Assembly (NCBI RefSeq): GCF_045037415.1
Contig: NZ_CP173438.1
Source of the DNA: Escherichia coli
Lineage (GTDB): Bacteria > Pseudomonadota > Gammaproteobacteria > Enterobacterales > Enterobacteriaceae
DNA length: 64,000 bases
Strand: one strand, 5' to 3'
Part shown: piece by piece, positions 19,317 through 22,300 of the stretch
Layout of the letters: each line of letters opens with the position of its first letter
Numbering within the stretch: position 1 is the first letter of the stretch
Program-made: the position numbers

Positions 19317-22300
19317 AGGAGGTTGCTGCGCTCATGGCCTGCACGTCCAGGTAAGGGCAAGCGCGGGGGTTTTCCCCGCGCATCTGACTAGCGGATTCAT
19401 TTTCTCATGGCCCCCCTTTTACACTTCAGTTAGTGCATGTTTTTTTCGATGCACTAATAGAACCATCATTACAGACAAATTTGCCGCCTGCCGTACAGTG
19501 TGAGATCCCCCCTTTCGAACCAGAACAGGGTTTGCGCCCGGCATCGGCATAAAAGGAAACAAGCGTTCCCATAACCAGGATAAGTGCCAGTTTTTTCATA
19601 TAACCTCCATGATTTATCGAATCTTATGTTCGATTTGAACGTTATACGCTGGTTTATTTTGATACCGTTGATGAGATCAAAGATCGGGTGAATTGATTAA
19701 AGATAAGCCAGATGGACGTATAGACAAGGATTATGGTTTTATTTGTCATACAAATAAATATAATAGGCGCTTCCGATGTAGGCCCGTATTCTTCGCCTGT
19801 ACCACGGGTCGGTTTTAGTACAGGCGTTTTCTTTAAATATCCTTCAGGAACGTTTACGTGGCATCATGCGTAGAAGTGTGTTGTCCTTCCAGAAATAGTG
19901 GTGTGCCAGTGCAGCCGCAGCGTGCAACCCGATGACAAAATATCCCAGATTCGCCAGCGTTTCATGCCACGACTTTAAGCTATCAACCCGCTCGAAATTG
20001 GCCTCTGAAGCGTAAGGCATCGTCAAACCAAACGCAAACCACGGGTTGCCCCGGTTATACATCATCACCAAACCAATCACCGGCAGCGCAATAAACAGGA
20101 GATAAATCACCAAATGGCCCAAATGCGCCAGTCCCGTCATCATCGGTTTTGGCTTAGGTATAATCGGCGGGGTTGGGTATTTCAGCCTTAACAAAAGACG
20201 AACCACCATCAGTACGAGAATTGAGATGCCACAGGAAACATGAATCATGTTGATGAGGGGCCGATCGCTACGTGGGAAGAAACCACGAAACTCCATTGCG
20301 CAATACGCTACGATAACCAGCAAAAAGACCAGCCAGTGAATGCTGATTTGTAACCTTGAGTATTTATTTCCCATAACATTTCCTGCTTTAACATAATTTG
20401 CCGTTAACATAACGGGCTTTTCTTAAAATTTCATTAAATATTGTTCACCCGTTTTCAGTACGTTACGTTTCACTGCAAGAATGTAGATTGCCCATCCCGC
20501 CATCCTGGTCTAAGCCTGGAAAGGATCAATTTTCATCCGAACGTTCCTGACAGGAGAAGACCATGAGTAAAGTTGGTATTAATGGTTTTGGTCGTATCGG
20601 TCGACTGGTGTTGCGTCGATTACTTGAAGTCAAAAGCAACATAGACGTTGTCGCTATTAATGATCTCACTTCCCCAAAAATTCTCGCCTACCTGCTGAAA
20701 CATGATTCAAACTACGGACCGTTCCCCTGGAGCGTTGATTATACGGAAGATTCACTTATCGTTGATGGGAAAAGTATCGCGGTTTACGCCGAAAAAGAGG
20801 CTAAAAATATTCCGTGGAAAGCGAAAGGCGCAGAAATCATTGTCGAATGTACAGGCTTTTATACCTCCGCCGAGAAATCGCAGGCGCATCTTGATGCTGG
20901 CGCGAAGAAGGTGTTGATTTCCGCCCCTGCCGGTGAAATGAAAACCATCGTTTATAACGTCAATGACGACACTCTGGATGGCAACGACACCATTGTTTCC
21001 GTGGCGTCATGCACCACTAACTGCCTTGCGCCGATGGCCAAAGCCTTGCATGACAGTTTCGGGATAGAAGTCGGCACGATGACGACCATTCATGCCTATA
21101 CCGGCACCCAGTCACTGGTGGATGGCCCGCGTGGTAAAGATTTACGTGCTTCACGCGCAGCGGCAGAAAATATCATTCCCCACACTACGGGGGCGGCAAA
21201 AGCCATTGGCCTGGTGATCCCGGAACTGAGCGGCAAACTGAAAGGTCATGCGCAACGCGTGCCGGTGAAAACAGGTTCGGTCACTGAACTGGTGTCGATT
21301 CTCGGAAAAAAAGTGACTGCCGAAGAGGTGAACAACGCGCTTAAAAAGGCGACAAACAATAACGAGTCATTTGGTTATACCGATGAAGAAATAGTCTCTT
21401 CCGATATCATTGGCAGCCATTTCGGTTCGGTGTTTGATGCCACGCAAACGGAAATTACCGCCGTGGGCGATTTACAACTGGTGAAAACGGTCGCCTGGTA
21501 CGATAACGAATATGGCTTCGTCACGCAGCTTATTCGCACCCTCGAAAAATTCGCTAAACTCTGACGCGCACAGGCGGAGGAAAAAACCTCCGCCTCTTTC
21601 ACTCACTACGACTGTAAATAAACCACCTGGGTCTGCAGATATTCATGCAAGCCATGTTTACCATCTGCGCCGCCAATACCGGATTTACGCCATCCAGCGT
21701 GGAAGCCTTGCATAGCTTCGAAGTTTTCACGGTTGATGTAAGTTTCACCAAACTTCAGCCCTTTAATGGCTTTCATCGCGACGTTCAGATTTTGGGTATA
21801 GATTGATGAGGTCAGGCCGTAATCACTGTCATTAGCCATTGAGATAGCCTCTTCCAGCGTGTCAAATGCGACCACCGGCAGAACCGGACCAAAGGTTTCC
21901 TCATGCATAATCGACATTTCCTGGCGAACATCCAGCAGCAATGTCGGCGGATAATAATATCCTTTCCCCTCTACCGCTTTGCCACCCAACGCCACTCTCG
22001 CCCCTTCTTCTACTGCGCGCGCCACTTTTTGCTCAACCCTTTCCAGCGCCGCGGCGTTAATCAACGGTCCCATCGCAATGTCGTTGCGTTCAGCAGGGTT
22101 ACCAAATTGAACCGCCTGCATCGCTTCACCCAGCCGATTGACGAACTGATCATAAATGCTTTTCTGTACATAAACACGTTCTGCACAGTTACACACTTGC
22201 CCACTATTAATGACGCGTGAATCAACGATGGCTTTGACTGCCAGTTCAATATCGGCATCGTCCATTACGATAGCCGGTGCTTTACCCCCCAATTCCAGGC

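Follow-up and report, generated by a model that had tools for sequence, protein, structure and literature searches.

The gapC gene occupies positions 20563..21564 on the plus strand of the window (by which we mean the whole 64,000-nucleotide stretch of Escherichia coli DNA analyzed here), where both the ORF listing and direct reading of the sequence reveal an uninterrupted frame of 333 codons that opens with an ATG and closes with a TGA. The intact coding sequence is 100% identical to that of a gene of strain SK1144 (NZ_AP018784.2; WP_000048688.1), whose annotation lists the 1,002-bp gene as intact, under the name 'gap'; over the initial 35.5 kb of the window, the two genomes differ at only 4 positions. 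Upstream of gapC lies cybB (19844..20374, minus strand) and downstream aldA (21606..23045, minus strand), followed by ydcF (23255..24055, minus strand); a comparison of annotations shows that the arrangement of gapC, divergent from cybB and convergent with aldA, is common to the window, K-12 MG1655 and SK1144.

The divergent cybB-gapC intergenic region (20375..20562, plus strand), the presumed promoter region of gapC, is nearly identical to the DNA found upstream of the gene in K-12. Direct reading places a Shine-Dalgarno sequence, AGGAG, at 20552..20556 of the plus strand, 6 nt before the ATG, and this element is conserved in K-12. A scan of the intergenic region for consensus σ70 promoters returned one weak site (20368-20397), no more than shuffled sequences or chance give, and we therefore claim no promoter for gapC. 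A 9-bp GC-rich hairpin (21572..21595, assigned to neither strand), located where gapC and aldA converge, is a probable shared terminator: its predicted RNA fold has an energy of -18.4 kcal/mol (z = -3.3), and none of 200 shuffled sequences folds as well. A terminator pattern scan left this hairpin unflagged, and the T-tract downstream of it is poor (CTTTC). The gene has been asserted to be 'laterally acquired' (PMC1796617). Its GC content (48.9%) and GC3 (51.8%) are like those of the neighboring genes and of the window (49.2%), and the composition thus shows no sign of recent transfer.

Within the translated product, Pfam recognizes the pair of domains typical of the glyceraldehyde-3-phosphate dehydrogenase (GAPDH) family (PF00044 and PF02800), with Gp_dh_N at residues 3-102 (E = 6.7e-36) and Gp_dh_C at residues 155-313 (E = 3.5e-58), both far over their gathering scores. 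TIGR01534, the equivalog model of NCBIfam for type I GAPDHs, spans residues 3-325 and gives 447.7 bits, over its curated cut-off of 367.2. The translation also contains, inside Gp_dh_N, the GxGxxG motif for NAD binding (G8-F-G-R-I-G13; 20584..20601), an aspartate at position 34 (20662-20664), the catalytic Cys150 (TGC, 21010..21012) as part of SCTTNC (residues 149-154) and the catalytic His177 (CAT, 21091..21093) as part of TIHAYT, all encoded on the plus strand. All the sequence hallmarks of a type I GAPDH are thus found in GapC: the model score, the Rossmann GxGxxG together with a catalytic domain, and the SCTTNC cysteine with its histidine. The preliminary description of this DNA had read the interval as an unbroken GAPDH frame of 333 codons with NAD-binding and catalytic-cysteine motifs. 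The ORF listing, direct reading, Pfam and TIGR01534 bear out this frame, which is far beyond chance, and both motifs are present, the former within residues 5-14.

Other models of the superfamily fit the protein poorly. The GapA-type model PRK15425 reaches 300.8 bits, where its cut-off is 662. Asp34 is the residue that specifies NAD in GAPDHs, and its presence bears on whether the GAPDH fold of GapC could serve some other main activity, as an erythrose-4-phosphate dehydrogenase (Epd/GapB), as an ArsJ-coupled arsenate GAPDH or as an NADP-dependent enzyme. We consider this highly improbable. The similarity that such a reading would draw on is at the level of the family, with 277.8 bits for the erythrose-4-phosphate dehydrogenase model TIGR01532 and 306.2 bits for the ArsJ-associated model NF033735, but these scores fall far under the respective cut-offs of 530.55 and 450 (the second Epd/GapB model, PRK13535, gives 281.2 bits for a cut-off of 539), whereas the cut-off of the type I equivalog is passed. 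Moreover, the genes that flank gapC are cybB and aldA, with no arsJ, and an enzyme 99% identical to GapC turns over glyceraldehyde 3-phosphate (G3P) with NAD+ and has been seen in structures that hold NAD, G3P and 1,3-bisphosphoglycerate (BPG) (PMC8615399).

Lesions of the K-12 allele and other differences from K-12

In K-12 MG1655, gapC is annotated as a pseudogene (b4493, 1489713..1490713). Synteny and full-length near-identity both establish it as the orthologue of the window gene: when aligned base by base over 1,002 bp, the two are 97.8% identical in nucleotides, with 21 substitutions and a single base missing from K-12. Codon 39 (20677..20679, plus strand) is AAA (Lys) in the window and TAA (stop) in K-12. 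Further downstream, a homopolymer of seven A residues (21306..21312, plus strand; GGA AAA AAA, encoding G248-K249-K250) is reduced to six in K-12, which shifts the frame, and the K-12 frame then meets stops past the shortened run. In another K-12-type genome, gapC has been labelled 'frameshifted; internal stop' by PGAP. The preliminary description had taken K-12 gapC to be a pseudogene with frameshifts; the pseudogene is confirmed, but the plural is not, as there is one nonsense codon and one frameshift. The alignment thus locates both lesions, the TAA at codon 39 and the loss from the A-run, and K-12 gapC is neither identical to the window gene nor intact over this interval.

One of the two K-12 lesions sits in a homopolymer, a classic site of error, and the intactness of gapC in the window could in principle be an artefact of sequencing or assembly, for example a miscounted A-run. 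At the other lesion, however, K-12 has a base substitution, where a sense codon stands in the window. Moreover, the 1,193-bp sequence of the window locus recurs, identical, in several independent complete genomes, and the seven-A allele is found in at least 2,286 genomes. The identity among independent genomes and the commonness of the alleles at both lesion sites therefore exclude an artefact for all practical purposes, and the probability we would still grant it is negligible.

The window departs from K-12 at several other places. The gene for the ribose/galactose chemoreceptor, trg, persists only as a 444-bp 3' remnant (18499..18943, minus strand; junction at 18943/18944), a clean deletion of 1,333 bp relative to K-12 having removed its promoter along with ~1.2 kb from the start of the gene; SK1144 is annotated likewise, and uropathogenic/B2 strains typically lack trg. 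Like gapC, a gene for a BigA/YdbA-type autotransporter (30162..38678, minus strand) is whole in the window and broken in K-12; its uninterrupted and internally repetitive frame has 2,838 codons and, compared with SK1144, an indel within the repeats. In K-12, ydbA is split by IS2D and IS30C and counts as a pseudogene, and the window copy is only ~78-85% identical to the K-12 fragments. At 28431..29942, azoR adjoins pdxI, and the ydbD and ynbABCD genes that lie between them in K-12 (~7.2 kb) are absent. At ~39093..39671, a remnant of paaY abuts a remnant of feaR (junction near 39333-39336); the ~18.1 kb of K-12 DNA absent there runs from the 5' end of feaR through feaB, tynA and paaZ..paaX into part of paaY, so that the cluster for phenylacetate and phenylethylamine catabolism is missing. 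Lastly, as judged from colinearity with the SK1144 annotation, hicB (4877..5113, minus strand) is partial and without its N-terminus, with no hicA listed beside it, and the locus is apparently a decayed HicAB toxin-antitoxin system.

Distribution of gapC alleles in E. coli

The gapC locus (1,193 bp) was found in 5,417 of 5,426 complete E. coli genomes. An exact 61-mer with the K-12 TAA is present in 1,152 of the 5,426, many of them from humans, animals, food and water, and the exact 61-mer with AAA, in which codon 39 is intact, in 3,221; the rest carry other SNPs in this stretch. For the homopolymer, the six-A state of K-12 (exact 37-mer) occurs in 1,047 genomes and the seven-A state (exact 38-mer) in 2,286. 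Being counts of exact k-mers, these figures are lower bounds, equivalent to at least 21% of the genomes for the stop and at least 19% for the frameshift. The counts of the two K-12 lesions among the 5,426 genomes indicate that the null gapC of K-12 is a natural lineage allele, carried, to judge from these sequences, by about one-fifth of sequenced E. coli. Intact gapC is the majority state in the species, and presumably also the ancestral one.

Twelve gapC records, sampled at even steps down the identity ranking, comprised nine annotated as intact and three annotated as pseudogenes. In strain 600029, K39* is accompanied by the frameshift; in strain LF4-1, K39* occurs without it and on a different 3' haplotype, which suggests either recombination within the gene or a stop that predates the frameshift. 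Together with the allele counts, LF4-1 leads us to infer that K39* probably arose before the frameshift in the A-run. The pig strain A5 has an independent TGG to TGA change at codon 56 (W56*). In the BL21-derived strain Nico21(DE3), an IS1A element lies between cybB and gapC, ~170 bp upstream of the gapC ORF; the ORF is intact, and the element may change its expression in BL21-type strains. An insertion of IS1 inside gapC of Nico21(DE3) was also considered and rejected, as the annotated region puts the element upstream and leaves the ORF intact. The states of loss found for gapC are thus K39*, in ~21% of the genomes, the seemingly later frameshift in the A-run, the independent W56* and, in B strains, the upstream IS1.

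The other GAPDH gene of the species behaves differently. gapA was found in 5,425 of the 5,426 genomes, with at least 99% identity in 5,424 of the 5,425, whereas the identity of gapC is 95-99% in most genomes, which makes it far more polymorphic within the species than gapA. (The plasmid-labelled records gave five matches to gapC and two to gapA.) GapC is 46% identical to the GapA of K-12 (b1779). Given this divergence, and since gapA is nearly universal at 99% identity or more, GapC is a second, divergent isoenzyme and no replacement for GapA.

Selection, expression and function of GapC

Comparison of 10 intact gapC alleles by the Nei-Gojobori method gave a mean dS of 0.111 and a mean dN of 0.0037, a ratio of 0.034. 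The intact alleles are under strong purifying selection, and a dN/dS of ~0.03 implies that the gene has been kept by selection; its recurrent inactivation in several lineages shows that it is dispensable under some lifestyles. As to expression, PMC2949598, in a passage that cites Espinosa-Urgel & Kolter 1998, describes gapC as intact and expressed in environmental isolates (a point also made in PMC1796617), as truncated in laboratory strains and as expressed preferentially in fresh water. In K-12, a ChIP-seq peak of σS RNA polymerase lies between gapC and cybB (PMC4447067), and the gapC_1 transcript is up 5.6-fold in carbon-limited chemostats (PMC4512719). The upstream region of gapC in the window differs from that of K-12 at only a few positions. 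In qPCR, the gene is also used as a marker of the species E. coli (PMC10614358, which cites P58072 and Hidalgo et al. 1996).

It could be argued that gapC is intact but silent in this strain, a cryptic and decaying gene that contributes no GAPDH activity. The independent inactivations in the species (K39*, alone or together with the frameshift, and W56*), a promoter scan at the level of chance and a universal, near-invariant gapA that can supply all glycolytic GAPDH would agree with such a state. Intact alleles of diverse lineages, however, give a dN/dS of 0.034, which is incompatible with general silence. Moreover, the promoter region of K-12 is still bound by σS polymerase and transcribed, the upstream DNA of the window is nearly the same, and expression in environmental isolates has been reported, at least as PMC2949598 relates it. 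That gapC is silent here is, all in all, quite unlikely.

The E. coli GAPDH of the PDB 7C5F series matches the window GapC with 725 bits and is identical to it at 330 of 333 residues. This protein, 'EcGAPDH1', has been purified as an active, NAD-dependent GAPDH with a Km for G3P of 0.73 mM, and was crystallized (7C5F, 7C5G, 7C5H and related entries), with complexes solved for NAD, G3P, the thioacyl intermediate and 1,3-BPG (Zhang et al., 2021; PMC8615399). The same study shows that C150A abolishes the activity of the enzyme, that C150S reduces it ~10^4-fold and that the H177A form is about 8,000- to 10^4-fold less active. From a protein that differs at 3 of 333 residues, we infer that the window GapC would have the chemistry of an NAD-dependent GAPDH. 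Cys150 would attack the aldehyde of glyceraldehyde 3-phosphate, a hydride would pass to NAD+ with His177 as the base, and phosphate would then cleave the thioester to release 1,3-bisphosphoglycerate.

The proposal first made from the sequence, that a GAPDH other than gapA may also be expressed in this strain, is plausible in view of the AGGAG ribosome-binding site, the dN/dS of 0.034, the active enzyme identical at 330 of 333 residues and the published expression in environmental isolates, and the window gapC probably encodes a real, functional and conditional second GAPDH beside gapA. Overall, we hold it very probable that the ORF is the intact, ancestral gapC, that its product is an NAD-dependent, phosphorylating type I GAPDH acting as a conditional second isoenzyme beside GapA, and that the K-12-type alleles are nulls of particular lineages. 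Expression would be conditional and not constitutive, linked, as the literature leads one to expect, to stationary phase and σS, to carbon limitation and to fresh water or low temperature. The null state would be lineage-specific, in K-12 and in about one-fifth of the genomes, with independent lesions in other lineages, and the strain of the window would be among those that keep a working gene. It is conceivable, if improbable, that the recurrent and lineage-structured loss of gapC is an adaptive marker of a shift away from a cold aquatic secondary habitat, or else that the allele with Y60, K262 and N265 is kinetically or regulatorily distinct.

The intact gapC, its contrast with K-12, the activity of the enzyme and its structure are all already published, and the central fact, that gapC is intact outside laboratory K-12 strains, dates from 1996-1998; the finding is correct but ordinary. 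What is new here is modest, and consists of the frequencies of the two K-12 lesions in the population, an independent W56* allele and the estimate of dN/dS. Beyond correct annotation, an intact gapC matters little, except as a case in which K-12 is unrepresentative of the E. coli species. For most natural, clinical and B-type strains, metabolic models and gapA-knockout designs that start from K-12 would overlook a second functional GAPDH. The distribution of alleles in the population also illustrates lineage-specific gene decay.

Four known proteins or genes can be set beside the window GapC. The K-12 gapC (b4493; formerly gapC_1/gapC_2, b1417/b1416) has the same locus and orientation, with a nearly identical upstream region and ribosome-binding site, but differs from the window allele by the TAA at codon 39 and the six-A run, in addition to R18G, Y60F, K262Q and N265T. 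EcGAPDH1, for which its authors do not use the name gapC, equals the window protein in length and in its catalytic residues, Cys150 and His177, and differs in having F60, Q262 and T265 where the window protein has Y60, K262 and N265, none of them in a catalytic motif; these three differences match WP_000048667.1, found in BL21-type strains, CEC15 and other strains. The GapC of O157:H7 (UniProt P58072; PMC10614358) is an intact orthologue, as is that of environmental isolates (Espinosa-Urgel & Kolter 1998, as cited in PMC2949598 and PMC1796617), and the allele of O157:H7 TR01 is 4 residues away from the window protein; the differences are allelic only. Finally, GapA, the housekeeping glycolytic GAPDH, shares with GapC the fold, the catalytic motif and the reaction, and both genes are present in essentially every E. 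coli; in contrast to GapA, which is near-invariant across the species, gapC is polymorphic and often inactivated.
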